Assembly (NCBI GenBank): GCA_020724805.1 | Contig: DYGI01000001.1 | Coordinates: 239,157 to 303,156, forward strand | Direction: 5' to 3' | DNA length: 64,000 nucleotides | Source: Candidatus Microgenomatus sp. | Lineage (GTDB): Bacteria > Patescibacteriota > Minisyncoccia > UBA6257 > GWB1-50-10 | Part shown: positions 2,544 to 57,672 of the stretch, one piece after another | How the letters are laid out: each line of letters begins with the position of its first letter | Position numbering within the stretch: the stretch's first letter is position 1 | Notes under the pieces: model-generated | Told to the model about the DNA's origin: nothing | Seen by the model: only the letters and a program-made list of their open reading frames with translations | Database searches by the model: none | Program-made: the position numbers and the translations under genes

Positions 2544-4607
2544 ATGTTCCAACTAATCTCAAAATTTAAACCGGAGGGAGACCAACCGAAGGCGATTCGC
2601 GAACTGACCGATGGGCTTGCCAAGGGTCACCGATATCAGACGCTTCTTGGTGTCACCGGTTCGGGGAAAACCTTCACCGCGGCGCACGTAATTGCGAACG
2701 CGAATAAACCTGCCCTTGTTATCGCGCACAACAAAACCTTGGCCGCGCAGCTCACGAACGAGCTTCGCGAACTTTTCCCCAAAAATTCGGTGCACTACTT
2801 CGTTTCGTATTACGACTATTACCAGCCGGAGGCGTATATGCCGACCACCGATACCTACATCGGCAAGGAGGCAATGATAAATGAGGAAATAGATAAATTA
2901 CGCCACGCAGCGACTTCCGCGCTTCTCACGCGAAGCGATGTGATTGTGGTAGCGTCCGTGTCGTGTATCTACGGTCTTGGCGCGCCCGAAGTGTACCGCG
3001 AGAACATTTTTCACCTGAAGCGCGGTGCGCCGATAGATCGCCCGACGTTTACGCGCAAGCTTGTGGAGCTCCACTACACGCGGACGACCGCGGACCTGAA
3101 GCGAGGGACATTTCGTACTCGGGGCGACCAGTGGGAAATAATGCCGCCGGACCGGGAACTTATTTACACGCTTGAGGTGAAGCCCGCCCGCAACGCTTCG
3201 CGTAGCGATGCGGGCGGGAACAGCGTTATTGAGAAAGTGTATGAAGTTGACCCGGTGCGCGGGTTTGTGCCCGGAGAAACCGAAGAGATTCCAGAAGTGA
3301 CCATTGCTCCCGCAAAGCATTTCATTACCCCGAAAGAAGAGCGCGACCGCGCCATCAAGGCCATCAAAGAAGAGTTAAAGGGGCAACTCAAAAAGTTCGA
3401 AAAGGAAGGAAAACTGTTGGAAGCCGAGCGACTTGAGCGGCGCACGAAATTCGACCTCGCGATGATACGCGAGGTAGGGTACTGCAACGGCATCGAGAAC
3501 TATTCGCGCCATCTCTCGGGGCGCGCGGCAGGCGAGCCACCCGACACACTTTTGGATTACTTTCCCCGTTCGACAAGCTCAGGGCAGGCCGATTTCATCA
3601 CAATAATAGACGAATCGCACGTGACCGTGCCGCAGATTGCCGGTATGTACGAGGGGGACGCGTCGCGAAAAAAGACGCTCATTGAATACGGATTCCGGCT
3701 TCCTTCGGCCGCCGACAACCGTCCGCTTCGATTTGCCGAGTTTGAAAAACGGGTGGGGCAAATCATATTTACGTCCGCCACTCCCGGGCCATTTGAAAAG
3801 AAAGTGAGCACGCAGACAGTGGAGCAAATTATTCGCCCAACCGGTCTTGTGGATCCGAAGGTGACGCTTCTTCCGGCGAAGGGCCAGGTTGCCGACCTTA
3901 TTCCCCGCATAGAAGCGCGCGCGAAAGAGAAGGAGCGAGTGCTCGTGACAACGCTCACAAAAAAAATGGCGGAGGACCTCGCAAGTTATCTCGAGGAGAA
4001 AAAAATGAAGGTTGCCTATTTGCATAGCGACGTGAAGACGATGGACCGCATCCGCATACTTACGAATCTCAGGAAGGGGACGTACGACGTGCTCGTTGGC
4101 GTGAACCTTCTCCGTGAGGGGCTCGACCTTCCCGAGGTCTCGCTCGTCGCCATTTTAGATGCCGACAAGGAAGGATTCCTGCGGAGCGAGACCTCGCTTG
4201 TACAGACCATCGGGCGCGCGGCACGGCACATCCGCGGCGAGGTGCTGCTCTATGCTGACCAGATGACCGGTTCCATCGCTCGCGCGGTGAAGGAAACCGA
4301 GCGGCGCAGAAAGATACAACTTTCCTACAATAAAACCCACAACATCACACCGACATCCATTGAGAGAGAAATAAAGGACATTCTCCCCGCGGACGCGGAA
4401 AAAATATTGAAACTTGAAGCAAAGCCGGTACCTCGCTCGGGCCGTGCGCGCGAGGCGCTTATTAAGGAAAAAGAAGCGGCAATGAAGGAAGCGGCGGGAG
4501 AGTTGAATTTTGAGCTTGCCGCTATCCTCCGGGATGAAATAAGAATTTTGAAGAGCGGCAATAACAAAAAAGGCCCTTCGAATATTCGAGGGGCCCCCGT
4601 GCGGTGA
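2544..4607 (+). CDS. uvrB: excinuclease ABC subunit B
   Basis: 687 aa. N-terminal GVTGSGKTFT Walker A, IIDESHVTVPQ, C-terminal UVR motif ELAAILRDEI. Confidence 0.95.
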   Translation: MFQLISKFKPEGDQPKAIRELTDGLAKGHRYQTLLGVTGSGKTFTAAHVIANANKPALVIAHNKTLAAQLTNELRELFPKNSVHYFVSYYDYYQPEAYMPTTDTYIGKEAMINEEIDKLRHAATSALLTRSDVIVVASVSCIYGLGAPEVYRENIFHLKRGAPIDRPTFTRKLVELHYTRTTADLKRGTFRTRGDQWEIMPPDRELIYTLEVKPARNASRSDAGGNSVIEKVYEVDPVRGFVPGETEEIPEVTIAPAKHFITPKEERDRAIKAIKEELKGQLKKFEKEGKLLEAERLERRTKFDLAMIREVGYCNGIENYSRHLSGRAAGEPPDTLLDYFPRSTSSGQADFITIIDESHVTVPQIAGMYEGDASRKKTLIEYGFRLPSAADNRPLRFAEFEKRVGQIIFTSATPGPFEKKVSTQTVEQIIRPTGLVDPKVTLLPAKGQVADLIPRIEARAKEKERVLVTTLTKKMAEDLASYLEEKKMKVAYLHSDVKTMDRIRILTNLRKGTYDVLVGVNLLREGLDLPEVSLVAILDADKEGFLRSETSLVQTIGRAARHIRGEVLLYADQMTGSIARAVKETERRRKIQLSYNKTHNITPTSIEREIKDILPADAEKILKLEAKPVPRSGRAREALIKEKEAAMKEAAGELNFELAAILRDEIRILKSGNNKKGPSNIRGAPVR

Positions 4608-5911: not shown

Positions 5912-6070
5912 AATATCACCTTCGTTTGTTTTAGTTATATGGGGTTATGCTGCGCGCACTATATCACCGTGCCTACATATTGACAAGATGGTGATGCCGT
6001 GGGATACATTGTGACAGTACTACCCTATAGGAAATCCTATATTTCACAACAACTAAAAGGAAAAATCGCC

Positions 6071-7612
6071 ATGAAGCGATTATTCGCAGTATTAGCGGTG
6101 CTGTGGTGGTGCGGCGAGCGGAGCATGGCGCAGCATATTGTTTCCGCAATCCGCACCGTCCGCGTCGCCGAACGCATCGAGGCATACAGTGCTGAAGGGG
6201 TGTTCATGGGGGCCTTTAAGGCATCTCTTCTGAACACCGTGTACCCGGTGCCGACCATCATCGGAGACCAATTCCTCGATTCGAAAGATCTCCGGCGGAC
6301 CGATTCCGCATCGGTGGGAACCGGTGCATGGCGTGTCGAAATGAACACCTCGGCGGATAGCATCAGCCGCTATCTCGTCATCATAAAGACGGTGCCCGCG
6401 ATGACCGTTCCCGCGAGCATCAATACCGATTTCCGGGTTCCGACATGGGTTACGAATCGGGTGCGCGTTGCGGAAAGTTTTTTCCGTGACGATGTGCCGG
6501 TCGTGAACTCCGGTCTCGACACGATCTTCGCAAGTGCAAGCTATCAAACCTCCACCCTTCAATTTCCGTCCGTGACCGGACAGGTGAATCAATGGGTACT
6601 GTGGGTCTCCTATATGTATGGAGAAGAAGGGCACCTTGTGCTCTTTTTCGACCAAGTGGTTGCCCCAGGAGGTGTGGTGTTGGAAAACGGAGAAGCAGGG
6701 GCTGATGTAACGGCTCCCGGTGCTCCTTCGGGTATGACGCTCACCGCGACTTCCGCCACCTCGGCGGATGCTCGCGCAACTGCACCGGCAGACGCCGATG
6801 TGGGAGGCGTGGTATTCGAACTTGACACCTCGCCGGCATTTACCAACCCAACACGAGTGATCGCATTCGCGACTCCAGGAGTGGAGGTGGTCAATACCTT
6901 CATTAATCTTGCGCCATCGACGCTGTATTACTGCAGGGCGGCGGCGCGCGACGTATCGGCAAACCAAGGAACATTTTCCGCGGTCGATACGGCGATGACC
7001 TTCACCTCAACGGGGAGTGGACTACCGGGAGCACCTACCAGTTTTGTGCTTACCGGAGCCTCATCTTCATCGGTGGTAGCGGTGTTCGAGCACGGTGTGG
7101 GCGCTATGTATACCGAAGTGCAACTTACCGAAGGGCTTTCTTTCGGAAGTTCGTACTCCGTGCAATTGGTTGCGGCGACCCCAGGAGCTCCCGGATTCGC
7201 GATTTTTACGGGGCTTCCGGCAAACCGAACCTTTGCGGGGAGAGCGCGCTCGGTGAACCAGGACGGACTTTCGGCATATGCGCCGCAGGACACCGGACGA
7301 ACATTCACCGTGACGACCGGCGTGGAGAAGTGGAGTGAAGCGCCGCATGCGTTTGCGCTCCACGGCAACTTCCCGAATCCATTCAATCCCACGACCATGA
7401 TCCGCTACGATGTGGGGGAAGAGGCAGTTGTGAGCATTACGGTGTACGACGTGCTCGGACGGACGATGGACGAACTGCTCTTGCGAGAACTGCGGGGCCC
7501 CGGCCGTTACGACGTGACGTGGAACGCTTCAGCGCATCCGAGCGGCATCTACTTTTGCCGAATGGAAGCGGGAAGGTTTACCGCGACGACGAAGATGCTT
7601 CTTGTGCGGTAG
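6071..7612 (+). CDS. secreted protein with T9SS-type (Por_Secre_tail-like) C-terminal sorting domain
   Basis: ATG 6071 with AAGGA SD. Signal peptide MKRLFAVLAVLWWCGERSMA. C-terminal ~80 aa FPNPFNPTTMIRYDVGEEAVVSITVYDVLGRTMDELLL...GIYFCRMEAGRFTATTKMLLVR matches the T9SS CTD consensus. Confidence 0.6.
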   Translation: MKRLFAVLAVLWWCGERSMAQHIVSAIRTVRVAERIEAYSAEGVFMGAFKASLLNTVYPVPTIIGDQFLDSKDLRRTDSASVGTGAWRVEMNTSADSISRYLVIIKTVPAMTVPASINTDFRVPTWVTNRVRVAESFFRDDVPVVNSGLDTIFASASYQTSTLQFPSVTGQVNQWVLWVSYMYGEEGHLVLFFDQVVAPGGVVLENGEAGADVTAPGAPSGMTLTATSATSADARATAPADADVGGVVFELDTSPAFTNPTRVIAFATPGVEVVNTFINLAPSTLYYCRAAARDVSANQGTFSAVDTAMTFTSTGSGLPGAPTSFVLTGASSSSVVAVFEHGVGAMYTEVQLTEGLSFGSSYSVQLVAATPGAPGFAIFTGLPANRTFAGRARSVNQDGLSAYAPQDTGRTFTVTTGVEKWSEAPHAFALHGNFPNPFNPTTMIRYDVGEEAVVSITVYDVLGRTMDELLLRELRGPGRYDVTWNASAHPSGIYFCRMEAGRFTATTKMLLVR

Positions 7613-12273: not shown

Positions 12274-12282
12274 AATAGTTAT

Positions 12283-13578
12283 GTGGAAGGAGAGTTTATC
12301 TCCGATGAGGAGGTGGAAGCGTATGAGCGGCGCGCAGATCCGGTGCGGCGCTCGGCGCGATGGTCTCTCGCCGCGGTTGCCGCGGCGTTTGCGCTCATAG
12401 GGGCCGCGTATTTGTGGGGAGCGTGGGGAGGCGGGAGTAAACTTACCGCATCGCTTCTTGGTGATGCAGGCGAAAAAGGTGAGGTCTTTATGCTGAAAAG
12501 CGCAGCCAGCGATGCGAACGCTCAGATATCCCAAGGAAACATCGCTGCTTTTTCCGCCGCGTGTGGCTACGAAAGCGGTCCTTCGACCAGTCCTTCGTTG
12601 CACTCAGGACAAGCAATTTCAGTTGTATTTAGTGAAATTGCTTGGATGGGGACGGAGGAAGGGGCGCAGTATGAATGGATAGAAATCGCGAACACCGGCA
12701 ATGCGCCCGCGGATATGAGTGGGTGGAGCGTGGTGGATAAGGATGAGCAGATACAGTTTTTATTTTCGAAAAGCGCGAACATCCCGGCGGGCGGCTTTAT
12801 GCTTTTTGCGCGGAGCGCGGATCGGGTAGGGAGCGTGAAGGCTGATTTCCGTTACACTGGCAATCTGAAAAATGAGGACGAAGGCTTGCGACTTTTCAAT
12901 GAGAAGTGTGAGGTGATGGACGAAGTACTCGCCGCGCCAAAGTGGCCGGCGGGGGATGTAAAAACCAAGAGAACTATGGAGAGGAACTTCGTGACGAAGA
13001 GCTGGCATACCTCAGCGGAAGTGGGTGGAACACCAAAAGCGGCGAATTCTCGCGGAATTGACGGGGGAAATAAAAAAGTAGAAGCGGATAGCACAGAGGT
13101 GGCGGCGACATCTACTCCCCCTCATCCATCCCCGACTCAGGGAATGGCGAGTTCGACGGGCTCACCACAGGTGGTAATAAGCGAAGTGATGGCGGGGAAA
13201 GATGGTGCGGCGAATTGGGATTTCGTAGAGCTTCATAACGCGGGGACAAGCGCGGTGAATCTCACCGGGTGGAGTGTAAAAAAGAAAAGTTCCACAGGAA
13301 ATGAATCGGCGCTCGTGACCTCATCGCGGTTTGAAGGGAAAACAATTTCCGCGGGCGGCTATTTACTTCTCGCCCACCCGGACTATACCGGCGTGCCCGC
13401 GGCGGACGTGGTGTGGCCTAAGTCGTATGTGCTCGCATACACAAATAATGCGGTGGTGCTCTACGGTGCGAATGGCGTGAAGGCAGATGAAATATCATGG
13501 ACGGAAATTCCGAAAGGACAATCATACGCGGAAATAAACGGTGCGTGGGCGGTGTCTTTTCCGACACCCGGGCAGTAG
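12283..13578 (+). CDS. membrane-anchored protein with two lamin-tail (LTD) domains
   Basis: GTG start. TM WSLAAVAAAFALIGAAYLWGAW. Two LTD-like blocks (SVVFSEIAWMG...WIEIANTGNAPADMSGWSV and QVVISEVMAG...WDFVELHNAGTSAVNLTGWSV). Confidence 0.6.
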   Translation: MEGEFISDEEVEAYERRADPVRRSARWSLAAVAAAFALIGAAYLWGAWGGGSKLTASLLGDAGEKGEVFMLKSAASDANAQISQGNIAAFSAACGYESGPSTSPSLHSGQAISVVFSEIAWMGTEEGAQYEWIEIANTGNAPADMSGWSVVDKDEQIQFLFSKSANIPAGGFMLFARSADRVGSVKADFRYTGNLKNEDEGLRLFNEKCEVMDEVLAAPKWPAGDVKTKRTMERNFVTKSWHTSAEVGGTPKAANSRGIDGGNKKVEADSTEVAATSTPPHPSPTQGMASSTGSPQVVISEVMAGKDGAANWDFVELHNAGTSAVNLTGWSVKKKSSTGNESALVTSSRFEGKTISAGGYLLLAHPDYTGVPAADVVWPKSYVLAYTNNAVVLYGANGVKADEISWTEIPKGQSYAEINGAWAVSFPTPGQ

Positions 13579-13676
13579 TGAGTTTGACCACCATAAAAGT
13601 GCATGATAAGGTGTGAAAACATTCCTCACGGGATGTGTGGTTCTTTTCAACAACCTTTCAATTCCATGGAGGTTCT

Positions 13677-22561: not shown

Positions 22562-23470
22562 ATGCAAACTTTGTCAGCGGTCATACGAGCCGCGGAAACA
22601 AAAAAAATCGCGATAGGACACTTCAATATTGCGAACTTGGAGCAGTTGAAGGCCATCGCGCATGTGGGAGTGAGGTTGAATGTGCCGGTCATCATCGGAG
22701 TTTCGGAAGGGGAGCGAGAGTATCTCGGCGTGCACCATGTGCGGGATTTGGTGGACAGTTATAACAAGGAACACGCAAAGACGGATGGTTTTCGCTTATT
22801 TCTGAACGCGGACCACACGAAGTCGATTGAGAAGGCAAAGGAAGCGGCGGCGAACGGGTTCGACGCGGTTTTGTTCGACGGTTCAAAACTCACGTTTGAG
22901 GAAAATATTACGCGTACGAAAGAAACGATACGGGCGGTAAAGCGGGGGTGGAAATTCTGGCGGAAGGATGTGCTTGTGGAAGGGGAATTGGGATATATCG
23001 GGGGAGCTTCGGAAATACGCGATAGTGTTCCCGAGGGTGCGGCGATAAAATCCGAGGACCTTACGAAACCTGAGGACGCCGCGCGATTTGTGAAAGAAAC
23101 CGGCGTGGATATGCTTGCGCCCGCGGTGGGAAACATCCACGGGATGCGAGCAGACGCTTCTGACCCTGCGCTCGATATCGCGCGAATTAAAGCGATAAAA
23201 GATGCCCTTCGACAAGCTCAGGGTAAACCGGTGTCGCTCGTGCTTCACGGCGCTTCGGGGAATACCGATGAAGATTTACGTGCCGCGATAGAAGCGGGGA
23301 TATCCGTCGTTCACATTTCTACCGAGCTTCGCGCCGCATGGCGGAAAAGTCTGGAAGGAGAACTTACGGAACACCCAAAGGAAGTCGCGCCTTACAAGGT
23401 AATGCCCGATGTACTCGCGGCGATGGAAGAAGTGGTGGAGCATCACCTTCGTCTTTTCAATCGGCTCTAG
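22562..23470 (+). CDS. fba: class II fructose/tagatose-bisphosphate aldolase
   Basis: [10 protein letters not shown]...DHTKS...LVLHGASG...VHISTEL. Class II aldolase family. Confidence 0.85.
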
Positions 23471-31394: not shown

Positions 31395-31523
31395 GGATAT
31401 GAATCCCGTTAGCGGCAACTAATATCATGTTCATGTTTCACCGTATAAATCCAAAAAATCGTAATATAAAGGTCTCGTGGCACAACCACGGTCGCCTTGG
31501 GGCGACCTACCTCTAACGGGATG
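31395..31523 (+). repeat. intercistronic structured element, copy B (SD + mini-ORF MNPVSGN + two GC hairpins + start codon of pilC)
   Basis: AAGGAT-ATGAATCCCGTTAGCGGCAACTAA, then AAAGGTCTCGTGGCACAACCACGGTCGCCTTGGGGCGACCTACCTCTAACGGG-ATG. About 85% identical to copy C outside the central loop. Confidence 0.6.
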
Positions 31524-32729
31524 AAATATCGTTATATTGCATCACAGCAGGATGGACGCGTGGTTGAGGGAGACCTCGAGGCGCGTGATATGACCGAGGC
31601 GCTCGCCACTCTCGGGAAAAACCAATTAAAACCGGTGAGTTTGAAACCGCTCGAAGAAGCGGCCAAGCGGTCATTTGCGCTGTTCAGAGGGAAAATGACG
31701 TTGACTGATCTCGTGTTCATGTCGAAATACCTCTCGCTCATGTTGAAAGTGGGAACGGGACTTTTGGAAGCAATAAATATTCTCGTGGCTGACATCAAAA
31801 AGCCCGCGGTGCGCGACATTCTTCTTGAGATTCGCACTACCTTGGAGCAAGGTCAGCCGTTCTACACCACATTCGCGAAGTATCCGCGTGTTTTCGGGAG
31901 CGTGTATGCAAACCTCGTAAAAGCAGGAGAAGCATCGGGTGACCTTGAACATGTGTTTGAGGATCTCACCGAGGATCTCACCAAACAAAAAGACCTCAAG
32001 GACAGGGTGCGCGGCGCCTTGATATACCCAATTCTTCTTCTCATTGGGTCAGTGCTTATCCTCTCGTTTCTTGTGGGGTTCGCGCTCCCAAAGATCGCAG
32101 ACGTCTTTCTCCAAGGCGGATTCGAGCCTCCACTTTTCTCGCGCATCGTCTTTTCCGTCGGGCTTTTCTTCAGTGATTACGGGATCTATTTCCTAGGAAT
32201 TTTTCTTGTGCTGGTCGTGATGGTGTGGCGACTCTATATTGCGTCCCCATTCTTCAAGAAATTTATTTTAGGAATATTTGCCGAGATTCCCCTCATTCGT
32301 GATGTGGTGCAGAAGATCGCGCTCCAGCGATTTGCGTCTACCTTCTCCTCGCTTATCCGCGCGGGAATGCCCATTACCGACGCCTTGGAGATTACCGCAA
32401 CCGCGGCGGGGAATGTGGAACTTTCGGAGTCATTAATGCGCATTTCGCGCGAGGGTCTCATGAAAGGGCTCACCATCGGCGAGGCGTTCAAGCGCGAACC
32501 TTTCTTTCCGCAGACCGTCGCGAGCCTCATGTCCATCTCTGAAAAGGCGGGGCATTTAGATGAAGTGCTGGGAACTCTCTCCGATTTCTACGCCAAAGAA
32601 ATAGACGCGTCGGTAAAATCACTCGTGTCATTCTTGGAACCGCTTCTCCTCGTCTTGATTGGTGCGGTCATCGGCGTTATCGCGCTTGCCATTATTGTGC
32701 CTATCTATCAATTGACCACCCAGTTTTAA
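31521..32729 (+). CDS. pilC: type IV pilus inner-membrane platform protein PilC (GspF family)
   Basis: MKYRYIASQQDGRVVEGDLEA... typical PilC N-terminus. Two GspF repeats with TM helices. Confidence 0.9.
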   Translation: MKYRYIASQQDGRVVEGDLEARDMTEALATLGKNQLKPVSLKPLEEAAKRSFALFRGKMTLTDLVFMSKYLSLMLKVGTGLLEAINILVADIKKPAVRDILLEIRTTLEQGQPFYTTFAKYPRVFGSVYANLVKAGEASGDLEHVFEDLTEDLTKQKDLKDRVRGALIYPILLLIGSVLILSFLVGFALPKIADVFLQGGFEPPLFSRIVFSVGLFFSDYGIYFLGIFLVLVVMVWRLYIASPFFKKFILGIFAEIPLIRDVVQKIALQRFASTFSSLIRAGMPITDALEITATAAGNVELSESLMRISREGLMKGLTIGEAFKREPFFPQTVASLMSISEKAGHLDEVLGTLSDFYAKEIDASVKSLVSFLEPLLLVLIGAVIGVIALAIIVPIYQLTTQF

Positions 32730-32785
32730 AAAATTGATTCTTATTGAAACATTGAAAATTGAATCATTATGAAGATTGAAAGGTT
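32730..32785 (+). repeat. AT-rich TTGAAR-unit element R1
   Basis: aaaaattgattcttattgaaacattgaaaattgaatcatt runs into the ATG of the four-helix-bundle gene. Same unit family as R2-R5. Confidence 0.6.
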
Positions 32786-33152
32786 CGAAGATCTACCGAT
32801 ATGGAAAGATGCGCGCGTACTTATTCAAATAATCTACAAACTCTCAGCCCCATGGAAAGATTTTTCATTGCGAGACCAAGTAAGACGAGCGGCAGTTTCC
32901 GCGATTTCCAACATCTCTGAAGGGTTTGAGCGCGGTTCTAATCGGGAATTTATACAATTTCTCTATATTGCGAAAGGCTCATTAGGAGAACTTCGCGCGC
33001 AACTTTACGTTGCATATGATGTGCGAATGGTAGGTAAAGAAAATTTTGAAAAATGTCTCGCGCAATGCGAGGTAGTTTCAAGGGGCATCAGCCGTTTCGT
33101 GGGATATTTGAGAAAATCCCCACTTACCAAAGAAAGGCACAAATCCAGATGA
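32769..33152 (+). CDS. four-helix-bundle protein (23S rRNA IVS protein / Avd-like family)
   Basis: 127 aa. ...AISNISEGFERGSNREFIQFLYIAKGSLGELRAQLYVA matches the TIGR02436/PF05635 family. Confidence 0.75.
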   Translation: MKIERFEDLPIWKDARVLIQIIYKLSAPWKDFSLRDQVRRAAVSAISNISEGFERGSNREFIQFLYIAKGSLGELRAQLYVAYDVRMVGKENFEKCLAQCEVVSRGISRFVGYLRKSPLTKERHKSR

Positions 33153-34324
33153 ACAAGGAATCTTTCAATTCTTCAATGGTTCAATCGCGTGGCGCGCGAA
33201 GCGCGTTCACGCTCATAGAAATGTTGGTGGTGGTTGCACTCACCGTTGCTATTGCGACCGCAGGTTTTCTCGGCCTTTCGGGATATCGCAACAAGCAAGC
33301 GCTCGAATCGGGCCTCGATGAACTCCGCGCGGCGGTGGAGGCAACGAAGCGTCGTTCGGTAGCGCAGGAGGAAGGAAGCCGGTGGGGGATGCGGTTTACA
33401 AACGCGACTTCCGGCATTTCCTCATACTCTGTCTTTCAGGGAAGCTCATATTCCACGAGCGGTATCGACCGTACCTACTCGTTCCGTGACCCCGTGGGGT
33501 TCATGAATCCGTCCGCTTCATCCACCTACGATGTGGTGTTTGCCCCGCTCTCCGGAGCGCTCTCGGAAAATAAAGTGTTCACGCTCGGCGGGGGCTTAAA
33601 AGGTTTTATCGGAGACCTTATTCTTCGCACTATCGGGTCCATCACCGCGCGCACCGATCAAGACGTGGTGGGATATTGGCACTTGGATGAAGGAACGGGA
33701 ACCGCCGCCTACGACTCCTCTGGTTACGGAAATACCGGCACACTCACGAACGGTCCGACGTGGCAATCAGGGACGAGCTGTAGGGCGGGAGGATGTCTAA
33801 ATCTAAACGGTTCGACGCATTACATACAGTACGGGAACGTTTTGAATATGGGTCTTGATGACTGGACGATTTCTGCGTGGGTCAATACAACAGATTCCTC
33901 GCTGACTAATCGGTATTATTTGAGCAAATCAAGAGCGGCAGCGCAAAACTACCGCTACGGTTTATTTATTAGCTCGAGCACACAATCGGGAGGGATATTT
34001 ATGCAGGGGAATGGGGGTGCCGATGTGGCGGTGAGCGGGAATGTAGCCGTCAATAACGGCCAATGGCACCACTTAGTCTCCGTTTTTGACAGAGACAACA
34101 ACGCCTCACTCTACATTGATGGCGCTTTGAATGCGAGCGGAACTATTTCGCAATGGGCAAGCGCAAATATGGTATCAAACAACCCTTTTAGAATAGGGTC
34201 GTACACTGCGTCTGATAATACTACGCCAACGCTATTTTTCCCCGGATCGGTGGACGAATTTCGTGTCTGGAGCCGGGCGCTCTCCGCGAGCGAGATTGAA
34301 GCGCTCTATAATGACCTTAAGTAA
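33149..34324 (+). CDS. type IV pilin-like protein with C-terminal LamG (concanavalin-like lectin) domain
   Basis: RSAFTLIEMLVVVALTVAIATAG pilin-type N-terminus (A at -1). LamG hallmarks WHLDEGTGTAAYDSSGYGNTGT...VDEFRVWSRALSASEI. Confidence 0.7.
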   Translation: MNKESFNSSMVQSRGARSAFTLIEMLVVVALTVAIATAGFLGLSGYRNKQALESGLDELRAAVEATKRRSVAQEEGSRWGMRFTNATSGISSYSVFQGSSYSTSGIDRTYSFRDPVGFMNPSASSTYDVVFAPLSGALSENKVFTLGGGLKGFIGDLILRTIGSITARTDQDVVGYWHLDEGTGTAAYDSSGYGNTGTLTNGPTWQSGTSCRAGGCLNLNGSTHYIQYGNVLNMGLDDWTISAWVNTTDSSLTNRYYLSKSRAAAQNYRYGLFISSSTQSGGIFMQGNGGADVAVSGNVAVNNGQWHHLVSVFDRDNNASLYIDGALNASGTISQWASANMVSNNPFRIGSYTASDNTTPTLFFPGSVDEFRVWSRALSASEIEALYNDLK

Positions 34325-34400
34325 ATGAAATTGAAAATTAAAAAATTGAAAATTGAACGATTGAATAGCAAATTTTTCAATCTTTCAATCCTTCAATCAC
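34325..34400 (+). repeat. AT-rich TTGAAR-unit palindromic element R2 (overlaps annotated 5' end of next CDS)
   Basis: ATGAAATTGAAAATTAAAAAATTGAAAATTGAACGATTGAATAGCAAATTTTTCAATCTTTCAATCCTTCAATCAC. Imperfect palindrome of tandem subrepeats. Confidence 0.6.
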
Positions 34401-35695
34401 ATTCGCGCTCCGGTCAATCATTGGTAGAAGTCGTCATCGGGCTCGCCATTGGGGCGATACTCATGGGTACCGCGGCCTTTGCGGTGACCACCATGCTCAA
34501 AACCAACCTCACTTCGGAAAAGTCTCAATTCGCCTCACGGTTCGCGCAGGCGCTTGCGGACAATGTACGCTCCTATGCGGTGGGGAATTGGGATTCGCTC
34601 TACAGCCTTACCAAGGCCACGAGTTCACATTATTTTTTGAACGCGTCCGGCACCACATTCTTTGTGGTGGAAGGCGAAGAGGGGATGTGGGATGGGGACG
34701 TAACTAGCGGACTCGTGGGACAGTGGAAATTCGACGAAGTGGAGACCACGACCAGCACGACCACCTATGATGCAACAGGCAATAGAAACCATGGGACTCT
34801 CGGGGGTAGCCCTACGAGAAGCACATCAACATGCAAAATTTCCAATTGCCTCACTTTCAACGGATCTAGCAATGGTGTCAGTGTTTCCGATAGTGCCACT
34901 TTCGACTTCGGGGCCGGAGATTTTTCGGTGGCGGTTTGGGTTAATCCTGCGGGAGGAGGAACGGGAGATACCCAAGACATGCTTGTTTCCAAAACATCCT
35001 ATCCGAGCGGTTTTAACAATCGTGGCCCCGGTTTCTACCTTGGAAGAGCCAACGATAGTTATTGGTCATTCATGGTGGCCGACAGCCCGGATGTGGGAGG
35101 TAATAAAGTGAATACCGGACAGAATCCTTCAGGATGGTTTCATCTTGCGGGCATTTCGGAAGGAGGAGTTCTTAAAATGTATTTGAACGGCACGCTTATG
35201 AGCACCACTACAAGGACCGTGGGGTCGGTAGATAATAGCGTGAATCTTTATTTCGCATACCGTCCTAGTGCGTGGTATTTCGGAGGAAGTTTGGACGACG
35301 TTCGTCTTTATAACCGTGCGCTCTCCGCAGATGAAGTTCGCCAACTTTGGAACTCGGGAGTGTATGAGCGTTTCTTTACCATTGAAAATGTGTGTCGCAC
35401 GAACGATGCCTCGAGCACTATCGCTTCAACCGCACCGTGCAGCGGAACACTCGAAGACGGTTCAACCCAATGGATTACGAGCTATACGCAGTGGGTCACG
35501 GGTGCGGGAACGAACGAAGTGACGATTCCTTCCATCATTGCGCGGTGGCAAAATGCGGTATTTCACCAGAGCGACTGGTCGGGAGGCGCGGCGAGCGAAG
35601 GCGCGGTCGTAGAGCCTACCAACAAGTTCTCAAGTTCCACGAATGCTTCGACGACCGGCGGGGTCATACAGATACAGAATCTCTCACAGCAATAA
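34325..35695 (+). CDS. type IV pilin-like protein with LamG domain (second paralog; true start uncertain)
   Basis: Cleavage-type motif SGQSLVEVVIGLAIGAILMG (G-1, E+5). LamG motifs WKFDE...GNRNHGTL...LDDVRLYNRALSADEV. The first 25 codons are encoded by repeat R2. A TTG start near 34363 is possible. Confidence 0.65.
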   Translation: MKLKIKKLKIERLNSKFFNLSILQSHSRSGQSLVEVVIGLAIGAILMGTAAFAVTTMLKTNLTSEKSQFASRFAQALADNVRSYAVGNWDSLYSLTKATSSHYFLNASGTTFFVVEGEEGMWDGDVTSGLVGQWKFDEVETTTSTTTYDATGNRNHGTLGGSPTRSTSTCKISNCLTFNGSSNGVSVSDSATFDFGAGDFSVAVWVNPAGGGTGDTQDMLVSKTSYPSGFNNRGPGFYLGRANDSYWSFMVADSPDVGGNKVNTGQNPSGWFHLAGISEGGVLKMYLNGTLMSTTTRTVGSVDNSVNLYFAYRPSAWYFGGSLDDVRLYNRALSADEVRQLWNSGVYERFFTIENVCRTNDASSTIASTAPCSGTLEDGSTQWITSYTQWVTGAGTNEVTIPSIIARWQNAVFHQSDWSGGAASEGAVVEPTNKFSSSTNASTTGGVIQIQNLSQQ

Positions 35696-35700
35696 AGAGG

Positions 35701-35780
35701 TTATTGAAGAATTGAGAGATTAAAGAATTGAAGAATTAGGAGATTAATAAAGAATTTTTCAATCTTTCAATTTTCAATAC
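35701..35780 (+). repeat. AT-rich TTGAAR-unit palindromic element R3
   Basis: attgaagaattgagagattaaagaattgaagaatt ... aatttttcaatctttcaattttcaat. Left and right halves are reverse complements. Confidence 0.6.
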
Positions 35781-35805
35781 CCATCTATAGGTTTATACTT
35801 TACTT

Positions 35806-36207
35806 ATGGCAACGATAAGGAACTTCCATGAAAAGTTAGAACAAGATCTCCAACGGGTAACCGCGGAGATCGAGCGCCGCAGGGAACGCGCACCCGAAAT
35901 CGCATCACGCGAAGTGGTGAGGCAGTCCATTATTGCGGCAATACCTCAAGCACCTGTTTCGGAGAGGGTCGAGGCCTCTCCCTCTGGTTCTTCACCGGCC
36001 GCGCCGGAGCGAATTCCCGCATATCTTAATGAGGAATCTCCTGAAATAAAGGCGGAGGTGGAACGACTCGTATCGCTGGCGTTCGAGAAGGGCATTTCAT
36101 CGGCAGTGGAAGAGGCGGCAAAAAAGTCCCCGTTCGTACTTGATGCGTTCCACGATGCGCTTGCGGATAAACTTCTGCCGGAATTGGAGAAAAGAGGAAT
36201 AATTTAA
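35806..36207 (+). CDS. hypothetical protein (133 aa, predicted helical)
   Basis: ORF between R3 and R4. Charged, helical composition. No motif recognised. Confidence 0.45.
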   Translation: MATIRNFHEKLEQDLQRVTAEIERRRERAPEIASREVVRQSIIAAIPQAPVSERVEASPSGSSPAAPERIPAYLNEESPEIKAEVERLVSLAFEKGISSAVEEAAKKSPFVLDAFHDALADKLLPELEKRGII

Positions 36208-36264
36208 AAATTGAAGAATTGAAGCATTGAATGATTAATTTTTCAATTTTCAATTTTCAATTTA
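36208..36264 (+). repeat. AT-rich TTGAAR-unit palindromic element R4
   Basis: aaaaattgaagaattgaagcattgaatgattaatttttcaattttcaattttcaattt, ending 4 nt before ATG 36269. Confidence 0.6.
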
Positions 36265-55738: not shown

Positions 55739-56029
55739 ATGAAATTTAAACCACTTTCGAACCGTGTGCTTGTAGAGGCTGTAGAGGATGTTGAAAAGGC
55801 AACAAAGTCTGGCATCGTGCTTCCTGATACTGCGAATGGGAAGCAGTATGTAAAAGGGACGGTAGTAGCAATAGGTCCGGGTAAATTTACCGACAGTGGT
55901 GGACAACTCCCTCTCTCTGTAAAAATTGGAGATGTTGCGATTTTCGAAAAATACAGCGGCACTGAAATTACGATTGAAAACAATAAATATATTGTCGTTA
56001 GGGAAGATGAAATTCTAGGTATTGAATAA
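55739..56029 (+). CDS. groES: co-chaperonin GroES
   Basis: MKFKPLSNRVLVEAVEDVEKATKSGIVLPDTA. 96 aa. Confidence 0.92.
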   Translation: MKFKPLSNRVLVEAVEDVEKATKSGIVLPDTANGKQYVKGTVVAIGPGKFTDSGGQLPLSVKIGDVAIFEKYSGTEITIENNKYIVVREDEILGIE

Positions 56030-56034
56030 AAATT

Positions 56035-57672
56035 ATGGCAAAGCAGATCAAATTCAACGAAGACGCACGTGCGGCGATGAAAAAAGGCATCGACAAGCTC
56101 GCGGAAGCGGTGCGAATGACTTTGGGTCCCCGCGGGCGCGCGGCGGTCATTGAGAAAAGCTATGGAGCGCCGCAGGTTACTTTTGACGGCGTCACGGTCG
56201 CGAAGGAGATAGAGCTTGAGGACAAGTACGAAAATCTCGGCGCCGAGTTTTTGAAACAGGCGGCCGACAAAACGAACGACAACGTGGGCGACGGAACCAC
56301 CACTTCTGTCGTGCTCGCTCACGCGATGATAGAAGAGGGGGAACGGCTTATCCAAGGGAAAGGGTTCAATGTTATTAAACTTTCCGAGGAGCTCAAAAAA
56401 GGCTCAGAGGCAATTGTAAAAAGTTTGGAAAAGCAAAAAGAATCCATTAACGACGCTAAAAAAATAGAAGAAGTTGCTACTCTCTCGGCAAAGGATGGAG
56501 AGATTGGGAAACTTATCGCCGAGGTGTTTGGTAAAGTGGGGCGTGAGGGAGTGGTGACCATTGATGATTCGAACACGGTTGGGAATTCCTACGAGATGGT
56601 GGAAGGCATGCAGTTCGACCGGGGGTACGTCTCGCCTTACATGGTGACGAGCCAGGAGAGGATGGAGGCGGCGATTGAGGACCCGGCAATACTCGTGACC
56701 GACCGCAAAATTTCGTCAATTCAGGAATTGCTTCCTCTTTTGGAAAAGCTGGTGCAAGGCGGGAAAAAGGAACTCGTTATCATCGCGGAAGAAGTGGAAG
56801 GCGAGGCGTTGACCACGCTCGTCCTGAACAAGCTCCGCGGAGTGTTCAGCGTGCTTGCGGTCAAAGCTCCCGGTTTTGGTGACCGGAAGAAAGAGATGCT
56901 TCAGGATATCGCGGTCGTCACGGGCGCTACGCTCATCTCGGAGGATCTCGGAAAGAAATTGGAAAATGTGGGAATGGACGAACTCGGACACGCACACCGC
57001 GTGGTTTCCGATAAGGACAAAACGACCATCGTGGGTGGGAAGGGAGACAAAAAAGCCATTGAAGAGCGCGTGAAACAAATCCGCGAACAAGTGAAACGCA
57101 CGGACTCCGACTACGACAAAGAGAAATTGAATGAACGGCTCGGCAAGCTTGCGGGAGGTGTCGCGGTCATCAAGGTGGGCGCACCGACCGAGTCCGCACA
57201 AAAAGAATTGAAGCAACGTGTGGAAGATGCCGTGGCAGCGACCCGCGCGGCGATGGAGGAGGGAATTGTGCCTGGAGGAGGCATCGCACTCTTTAATGTC
57301 ACGTATGATACGGTGTCGCTTCAGGAAAATGCGAAGTCGGTCGCTGACGCAGTTCGGGTGATTCTTAAACGTGCATTGGAGGCGCCTCTTACCGCGATTG
57401 TCGCAAATAGTGGAGAATCGGTTGAAAAAGTAGTAGAGGAACTTAAGAAGAGAGGCAAGGACGATCTTTGGAAAGGGTTCAATGCCGCTAAAAACGAACT
57501 TGAAGACTTAAAGAAAGCTGGCATCATTGATCCGCTAAAAGTGACAAAAACAGCATTCTTGAACGCGGTTTCAGTTGCATCTACCTATCTCACTATCGGT
57601 GCGGCAGTCTCGGAAATCCCGAAGAAAGAAGTTCCGCCCGCGGGCGGAATGCCGGGAGGGATGGATTATTGA
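56035..57672 (+). CDS. groEL: chaperonin GroEL
   Basis: [34 protein letters not shown]... Ends GGMPGGMDY. Confidence 0.97.

Follow-up and report, generated by a model that had tools for sequence, protein, structure and literature searches.

A short, strand-polar DNA repeat inserted in frame into conserved genes of a Patescibacteria genome recurs across bacterial phyla

The closest documented phenomenon to the repeat described here is the insertion of repetitive extragenic palindromic sequences (REPs) into genes, together with the Rickettsia palindromic elements (RPEs). Intragenic REPs are known from the GTAG- and CGTC-tagged superfamilies (Di Nocera et al., 2013; PMC3733652), and in-frame REPs have been reported in uvrB of R. 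conorii, in uvrA of several species, and in genes for polymerases and tRNA synthetases (PMC3733652); elements of the RPE-1 type are palindromes of about 100-150 bp found only in Rickettsia (as cited in PMC3733652). Our subject is a motif of about 24 nucleotides (nt) in a 64,000-nt stretch of the 570,864-bp contig DYGI01000001.1 (GenBank assembly GCA_020724805.1, positions 239,157 to 303,156) from Candidatus Microgenomatus sp., a member of the candidate phyla radiation (CPR, or Patescibacteria); this whole 64-kb stretch, in whose numbering all coordinates are given, is called the window below. Like the motif, REPs are short (20-40 nt), GC-rich, mostly extragenic and sometimes in frame inside genes; REPs also fold into hairpins, are often paired as inverted dimers where genes converge, and probably move as single-stranded DNA. 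RPEs resemble it in being selfish, in sitting in frame in functional open reading frames (ORFs) where they encode tolerated surface peptides, and in varying in presence among orthologs. The motif is best filed as an unusually promiscuous, strand-polar variant of such REP/RPE-like miniature repeats.

Other short sequences share some of its traits. The DNA uptake sequences (DUS) of Neisseria and uptake signal sequences (USS) of Pasteurellaceae are family-specific, occur about once per kb and are not replication-polar; like the motif, they are short, occupy permissive coding frames and are enriched in genome-maintenance genes, and the likeness extends to inverted pairs that act as terminators and to spread by recombination without target duplications. 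The FtsK-orienting polar sequences (KOPS) and architecture-imparting sequences (AIMS) have in common with it a strong bias to the G-rich (leading) strand. Palindromic amphipathic repeat coding elements (PARCELs) are, like it, coding repeats with dyad symmetry at the DNA level, scattered punctately among distant microbes and attributed to horizontal transfer, but a PARCEL encodes tandem protein domains of 25 residues, in ORFs without a known function, whereas the motif adds one block of 8 codons to a housekeeping gene or lies in hairpins between genes.

In the window the motif takes the form CC-TTCGACARGCTCA-GGGCAGGC, and a search of all 64 kb with the pattern CCTTCGACARGCTCAGGGCAGGC (up to 3 mismatches) recovered three near-identical copies, all on the + strand, as against none in 100 dinucleotide-preserving shuffles. 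An earlier note on this DNA had pointed to near-identical strings in several unrelated genes; these are real, and the translations that it gave for the three copies are correct. The first copy (CCTTCGACAGGCTCAGGGCAGGC, 780-802, +; an exact match, which the note had begun one base too early, at 779) encodes PSTGSGQA in frame in ORF 642-1013, whose product, described in the note as CsaA-like, is a tRNA-binding domain protein of the Trbp111/CsaA type (PF01588 in orthologs). The second (CGTTCGACAAGCTCAGGGCAGGC, 3567-3589, +) encodes RSTSSGQA in frame in uvrB (ORF 2544-4607), directly ahead of helicase motif II (DESH). The third (CCTTCGACAAGCTCAGGGTAAACC, 23206-23229, +) is read in a second frame, as LRQAQGKP, in fba (ORF 22562-23470), the gene for class II fructose-bisphosphate aldolase; the pattern search ends this copy at 23228 (CCTTCGACAAGCTCAGGGTAAAC), and we took 23206-23229 as its full extent.

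Two further copies, read directly from the sequence, lie in a protein with two LTD domains (ORF 12274-13578), where the note had placed them. The degenerate copy in the linker ahead of the first LTD domain (CCTTCGACCAGT-CCTTCGTTGCA-CTCAGGACAAGC, encoding PSTSPSLHSGQA) spans 12580-12614 (+), the note's range of 12579-13613 being a typing error, and consists of the motif plus a second copy of its first 12-nt half; the ortholog in a relative (L123) has an uninterrupted copy, CCTTCGGCGGGCTCAGGGCAAGT (GPSAGSGQV), at the same position. The copy in the linker ahead of the second LTD domain (GTTCGACGGGCTCACCACAGG, 13151-13171, +, encoding SSTGSPQV) belongs to a sister subfamily, TTCGACRGGCTCACCAC, in which the same 13-nt core is followed by CCAC. 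Other members of this subfamily occur at L067 and at L153, a related genome in which the transketolase gene carries GGTTCGACAGGCTCACCACGA in frame. At up to 3 mismatches, the motif showed no 16S rRNA similarity in the window.

Alignments of UvrB, the tRNA-binding protein and the aldolase to orthologs and solved structures bore out the idea of insertion, with gaps at exactly the motif sites. UvrB has 7 extra residues relative to the solved structure of Bacillus caldotenax UvrB, the tRNA-binding protein aligns to Aquifex Trbp111 (PDB 1pyb/8vtz) with an 8-residue gap exactly at the motif, and the aldolase has about 6 extra residues in the motif region compared with its PDB homologs, so that motif copies lengthen loops by 6-8 residues, and the loops are absent from solved structures and from the closest orthologs. 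The clean insertion that the note saw in UvrB is thus genuine, although it measures 7 codons rather than 8 against both B. caldotenax and an empty ortholog. An AlphaFold model places it as a coil between helix H336-339 and the beta strand of motif II (E352-356). The best UvrB matches are from Jorgensen-, Brenner- and Liptonbacteria (CPR/Patescibacteria), and because gene order (FtsX, tRNA-binding protein, DUF5671, UvrB) is preserved on related CPR contigs, their orthologs are directly comparable. In a UvrB ortholog of 85% identity the site is empty (CCC AAA GAC TTC), and in one of 90% identity (L124) it holds a different insert, the 16-nt perfect palindrome TCCGCCAGCTGGCGGA. Syntenic tRNA-binding orthologs in L123 and L124 are without the insert at the window's position, and the tRNA-binding genes of L124 and L121 have the motif in a different loop of the same protein. 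The encoded peptides are probably passengers without a function of their own.

What is conserved is the DNA. The uvrB genes of three lineages are only 65-68% identical and use the same codon for just 37-46% of identical amino acids, but their inserts agree at 21/21 and 19/21 nt where the genes agree at 68% and 65% (P = 3e-4 and 0.009), including in three six-fold-degenerate serine codons. Similarly, the fba insert is 22/24 nt identical to that of the L153 ortholog (gene identity 72%) and 21/24 in a gene that is 61% identical, and the motif, with a GC content of 61%, is nearly canonical even in CPR genes on contigs of 36-42% GC. Because the insert nucleotides are far better conserved than the synonymous sites of the host genes, the motif is a nucleotide-level element and not a protein motif, as the note had argued from its use of different frames: copies in the window are read in two frames and those elsewhere in all three sense frames, and close orthologs are empty. 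Read in sense, the motif is free of stop codons in every frame, and one of these frames gives a flexible peptide of Pro, Ser, Thr and Gly; a TGA appears in one antisense frame. Were the motif a flexible linker peptide (PSTSSGQA), reached by convergent selection or passed on with its proteins, this would account for the predominance of the PST(S/G)SGQA frame among copies in long, putatively genic ORFs (about 22/44), for the sense orientation of all CPR copies, and for the peptide's presence in the linkers before both domains of the LTD protein. Such a protein-level explanation is nevertheless scarcely credible: the aldolase copy is in another frame (LRQAQGK) and a third (FDKLRAG) is used elsewhere, about two-thirds of the copies found in other genomes are not within a long ORF, diverged genes have the very same six-fold-degenerate serine codons, and the segment is missing from solved homologs and the closest orthologs.

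The motif is not confined to this genome. In 596 Gb of scanned sequence the exact 21-mer TTCGACARGCTCAGGGCAGGC was present, with unrelated flanks, in at least 120 species-representative genomes, where about 0.5 matches were calculated to arise by chance. These at least 120 listed genomes, on which the phylum spread rests, belong to a dozen or more phyla. Among the matches listed, Acidobacteriota make up about half, and the others come from Chloroflexota, Verrucomicrobiota/PVC, Planctomycetota, Proteobacteria, Bacteroidota, Fibrobacter, Myxococcota, Nitrospirota, Gemmatimonadota, Chlamydiota, Actinobacteria, Eremiobacterota, Ignavibacteriota and two further CPR genomes. Conservation reaches past the 21-mer only to CCC on the left and to about TCT on the right. 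The motif is also carried by plasmids or chromids of cultured Sphingobium (as many as 10 places on one replicon), Variovorax, Polaromonas, Comamonas and Trichlorobacter, by the genome of a Lysobacter isolate, and by 23 viral contigs of IMG/VR; none of 5,426 complete E. coli genomes contains it. Judged by ORF length, about one-third of the copies in other phyla look genic and about two-thirds lie outside long ORFs, and ten genic copies that we checked were in frame (in AlaRS, UvrA, DnaX, GH43, GH106, a PfkB kinase and others), those in AlaRS occupying different positions in two CPR genomes. Density is about 1 per 7-20 kb, with three canonical copies in the window and 1-3 per 14-21 kb in related CPR loci. 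A contaminant, adaptor or assembly artefact is ruled out by the in-frame copies in conserved genes, by independent short-read and long-read assemblies, and by the isolates. We infer that the spread between phyla was horizontal. Literature searches found no published description of the DNA string or of the peptides that it encodes.

Within the 120 loci from other phyla (L001-L120), further short motifs recur in unrelated genomes (e.g., GTCATCCTGAGCGAAGCG, GGGCTTTAGCCCCTGAG and GTGGGGACAGCCG), and in Chloroflexota the motif is often flanked by heptamer tandem repeats, such as GACGAGT in L003 and L054.

Comparison of copies resolves the unit of about 24 nt into an invariant 13-nt core (TTCGACARGCTCA), a short variable stem, usually CCC/GGG, and a terminal CAGGC. 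The 3-5 bases on either side of the core are complementary and covary (CCC/GGG, TCC/GGA, TGG/CCA, CCG/CGG, TGC/GCA, GGGC/GCCC), which suggests a small hairpin with a conserved loop. In Sphingobium the motif forms an inverted doublet between convergent genes (L149, 2945-3025; z = -4.95); such doublets are a minority among the 120 loci, and there are none in the window. Tandem arrays with a 24-nt (8-codon) period occur elsewhere, as do duplications of the 12-nt half (e.g., L115). Inverted repeats of the host (at least 7 nt) flank 24% of copies, as against 8% in a control, and being a minority feature they do not make residence in the loop of a host hairpin the rule. Nor is placement terminator-like: non-genic copies show no preference for sites directly downstream of genes on their own strand (14 vs 12 within 100 nt). 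Scans of the window and 18 motif-bearing loci at Rfam gathering thresholds returned rRNA and tRNA only, and a permissive Rfam search of the Sphingobium doublet gave only chance-level hairpin matches.

The orientation of the motif is tied to the G-rich strand. When loci were oriented by the motif and the GC skew of the surrounding sequence was measured as a proxy for the leading strand, skew was positive on the motif strand at 95 of 131 loci (P = 2.6e-7), and at 60 of the 75 where |skew| exceeded 0.03. Non-genic copies keep the bias (56 vs 15), and a control dispersed repeat put through the same analysis had none (37 vs 35). The bias is independent of two crude proxies for the coding strand, which gives no support to gene orientation as its cause, and position after gene ends does not account for it either. 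All copies in the window and in every related CPR locus lie on the G-rich strand, in sense orientation. The heptamer GGCAGGC occurs nine times on the + strand of the window and never on the - strand, although many G-rich words are strand-skewed there anyway. The G-rich strand is presumably the leading strand.

Such polarity raises the possibility of a functional polar DNA signal under selection, a KOPS/AIMS-like or other protein-binding site that genes tolerate only at permissive loops. Besides an orientation that follows GC skew irrespective of gene strand and is missing from the control repeat, this explanation can draw on the conservation of the uvrB and fba insert nucleotides well past synonymous expectation, on the one-sided distribution of GGCAGGC, and on a match of GGGCAGGC, within the motif, to 7/8 positions of the E. 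coli FtsK-orienting sequence GGGNAGGG. We nonetheless consider it unlikely. KOPS are bare octamers, whereas the motif is a hairpin-associated unit of 24 nt that forms doublets and arrays and is inserted in genes: an orienting octamer leaves the full 24-nt conservation and the covarying stem unexplained, inverted doublets cancel polarity, and tandem arrays, viral contigs and plasmids find no explanation. Copies are sparse, at about 1 per 7-20 kb, the abundance of skewed G-rich words in the window weakens the case from GGCAGGC, and the likeness to KOPS is partial.

Presence and absence of the inserts vary among relatives. Of 120 UvrB homologs surveyed, 93 fitted the pattern used to extract the loop; 44 of these have no insert, 32 a 6-residue loop of the HTEDGKP type, about 9 an STSSGQA-like insert, and the remainder other repeat-like peptides. 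Of 118 aldolases, 93 lack an insert, 11 have LRQAQGK-like inserts, 7 have NLPAGRQ at the motif site, and in others a second loop holds inserts of the RRSxSEGG type. UvrB and FBA sequences that bear the motif mostly have empty nearest neighbours, and parsimony on neighbour-joining trees requires 36 changes of state for UvrB and 17 for FBA. A near-isogenic pair of fba genes (93% nt identity, in a host of 36% GC) captures a filled and an empty site: GCCGTTAAAA vs GTCCTTCAACAAGCTCAGGGCAAGCCGT, a net gain of 18 nt with a few bases replaced and no target-site duplication. The flanks within about 100 nt are as alike as the remainder of the gene and so give no indication of a long tract, and an imported recombination tract around the FBA insert was rejected. 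New copies are thereby shown to arise as short replacement patches without target-site duplication, and the host loops in UvrB, the aldolase and the tRNA-binding protein are probably recurrent hot spots.

The same turnover bears on whether each gene received a single ancient insertion, in an early Paceibacteria ancestor, which then descended vertically with decay and repeated loss and without ongoing mobility. The UvrB inserts do share a CCC-CAY/CGT junction and grade from pristine copies through HSADSGQA to, possibly, HTEDGKP (32/93 homologs), and the FBA inserts share a variant of their own (GGT AAA CC / GGC AAG CC, encoding GK). Even so, we regard this history as decidedly improbable, given that pristine nucleotides persist where synonymous sites are saturated, that filled alleles have empty nearest neighbours and the trees need 17 (FBA) and 36 (UvrB) changes, that a filled and an empty allele can differ by only 7% overall, and that many exact restorations of the ancestral AVKIPLV would have been needed; it also leaves the copies in other phyla unexplained.

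Patchy presence among close relatives would equally be expected of a DNA uptake sequence serving the competence or pilus machinery of CPR bacteria and accumulating by biased uptake and homologous recombination (molecular drive), which the note had raised as an uptake or recognition sequence. The short replacement patches without target-site duplication are in keeping with it, as are the occupation of permissive frames in coding regions, including a genome-maintenance gene, the inverted pairs between convergent Sphingobium genes, and the conservation of nucleotides past synonymous expectation. The idea is contradicted by the wider distribution, and we hold it to be highly unlikely: uptake signals are lineage-specific, whereas a single 21-mer is shared by Acidobacteriota, Chloroflexota, Verrucomicrobiota, Proteobacteria, Bacteroidota and further groups, as well as by viral contigs; copies here, at about 1 per 20 kb, are 10-20 times sparser than DUS/USS, which occur roughly once per kb; replication-strand polarity is not a known property of USS; and no uptake receptor was found.

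We are moderately confident that the motif is instead a miniature, non-autonomous REP/RPE-like repeat that acts as DNA and is copied in a strand-specific manner, and of which the copies that survive are those in frame, in sense and in loops. Copying would involve a single-stranded intermediate at the replication fork: either the hairpin would be processed in the manner of HUH enzymes or REP-associated tyrosine transposases (RAYTs), or another copy would serve as the template for short-patch repair guided by microhomology. Where genes are as dense as in a CPR genome, selection would spare copies that lie in sense, add multiples of three bases and fall in surface loops, and the repeat would in addition spread horizontally between phyla. 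The mechanism of copying is conjectural.

Several observations weigh against it. The consensus CCCTTCGACARGCTCAGGGCAGGCTCT has no GTAG, CTAC, CGTC or GACG tag, unlike the REP superfamilies, and its conserved part is the 13-nt loop and the 3' tail, where that of a REP is the stem; a single motif copy is no significant palindrome, and the single genic copies of the window fold no better than shuffles (z of about 0 to +1.1). REP and REPIN families (REPINs being inverted REP doublets, mainly between convergent or unidirectional genes) are lineage-specific and vertically inherited, whereas one identical motif spans a dozen or more phyla as well as plasmids and viral contigs. Across the 120 loci, the sequence within about 4 kb of the motif has no recurrent transposase or other protein, no search having been aimed at RAYT or IS200-type genes in the host genome, and all-against-all clustering of ORFs found any one family common to at most 6 loci. 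The cognate RAYT of a REP is an IS200/IS605-like Y1 transposase, often flanked by REPs, and no association with one was seen near the motif in the 120 loci; the missing recurrent neighbour says little on this point, because RAYTs are single-copy. The census of copies in the host organism covers the 64-kb window. Finally, the shared junction and series of decay states in UvrB, and the variant shared by the FBA inserts, fit old orthologous insertions that were constrained or exchanged by recombination as well as they fit repeated de novo insertion, and because of them part of the pattern may consist of old insertions, constrained or refreshed.

These points also bear on what the note had suggested about relatives of the element. 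Its comparison with RPEs is apt for behaviour (in frame, in loops, tolerated) and fails for membership, since the motif has a 24-nt unit, inserts of 18-24 nt, no palindrome in a single copy and a pan-bacterial rather than lineage-restricted range. Its other suggestion, the footprint of a mobile element, may hold, though there is neither a target-site duplication nor a recurrent nearby element or transposase. Miniature inverted-repeat transposable elements have terminal inverted repeats and a target-site duplication and measure 50-500 bp, compared with 24 nt here, and the filled/empty pair replaces a few bases and has no duplication.

A broader version of the REP/RPE-like reading, which we offer as a tentative possibility, is that of a pan-bacterial 24-nt micro-element without a dedicated transposase, cross-phylum in range and written at the fork, that is a general and undescribed source of loops in essential proteins and one family among several of its kind. 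Its carriers between phyla might be phages, plasmids or DNA taken up by cells, strand-specific writing would be by short-patch templated repair or hairpin processing, and the loops in UvrB, UvrA, DnaX, AlaRS and the aldolase would be its products; its sibling families, similar in behaviour, would be a second insert in uvrB (described below) and the PPAGG, LPAGRQ and RRSxSEGG inserts. If the reading holds, one sequence of 24 bases is letter-identical in CPR/Patescibacteria, Acidobacteriota, Chloroflexota, Verrucomicrobiota and sphingomonads and has arrived repeatedly at the same permissive loops of conserved housekeeping and DNA-repair proteins. It would then be a searchable marker for minute DNA elements, selfish or assisted by drive, that escape gene callers and repeat finders, its replication-strand polarity would offer a handle on the copying mechanism, and it would account for many odd 6-8-residue indels in CPR proteins, making such indels risky as phylogenetic signatures, and for many spurious "hypothetical proteins" with FDKLRAG, LRQAQG or SLSKG-type peptides.

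Other inserts occur in the same proteins. The second in-frame insert of uvrB (CCCGCCCGCAACGCTTCGCGTAGCGATGCGGGCGGG, 3183-3218, +) folds with a perfect stem of 10 bp (-19.3 kcal/mol, z = -4.3), and the PARNASRSDAGG that it encodes lies at a beta-hairpin tip not present in B. caldotenax UvrB. Exact copies of its 22-nt loop turn up in at least 120 metagenome contigs, where they are enclosed by CCCGCCC/GGGCGGG stems and have unrelated flanks; some adjoin a GGTTCGA resembling a tRNA T-arm, and the family is without GC-skew polarity. In CPR aldolases (P0123, P0130, P0132, P0142, P0158, P0173 and others), NLPAGRQ recurs at the motif site and inserts of the RRSxSEGG/SESGGG type follow GNIHGM, and the UvrB hot spot also receives RRSLGEGGP and RKHGLARMNARMNTD inserts. 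Several short GC-rich insert families seem to share the same permissive loops. An 18-nt perfect palindrome (TTCCGCCCGCGGGCGGAA, 57632-57649, +), to which the SPPAGG-encoding TCCGCCAGCTGGCGGA at the UvrB hot spot of L124 is near-identical, encodes VPPAGG near the end of ORF 56026-57672, a protein that looks chaperonin-like by its C-terminal tail (...GGMPGGMDY).

The window has further repeats and features apart from the motif. About 21 nt overlapping the 3' end of the tRNA gene at 51920-52002 (-), reading GAGTCCCACCCTGGGCACAAA on the - strand, are repeated 166 nt away (51750-51775 and 51916-51941), and the repeat looks like the attachment-site remnant of an integrated element. The protein encoded at 5999-7612 (+) ends like a type IX secretion C-terminal sorting domain (...FPNPFNPTTMIRYDV...), and the neighbour of uvrB in a related contig (L154, 4401-6095) matches Pfam Por_Secre_tail; such sorting-type ends are unexpected outside the Bacteroidota/FCB group. 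A/T-rich repeat clusters (ATTGAAAATTGAA, TTGAAAGATTGAA) lie in both orientations at 32751-36260 and 50338-50366, and the 32-36 kb region, which has the lowest GC of the window (0.498), could hold iterons or be an origin-like or regulatory region. Repeats of 16-20 nt (GATATGAATCCCGTTAG, CCTCTAACGGGATGAA), likewise in both orientations, occur at 31396-31525, 49511-49645 and 17727.

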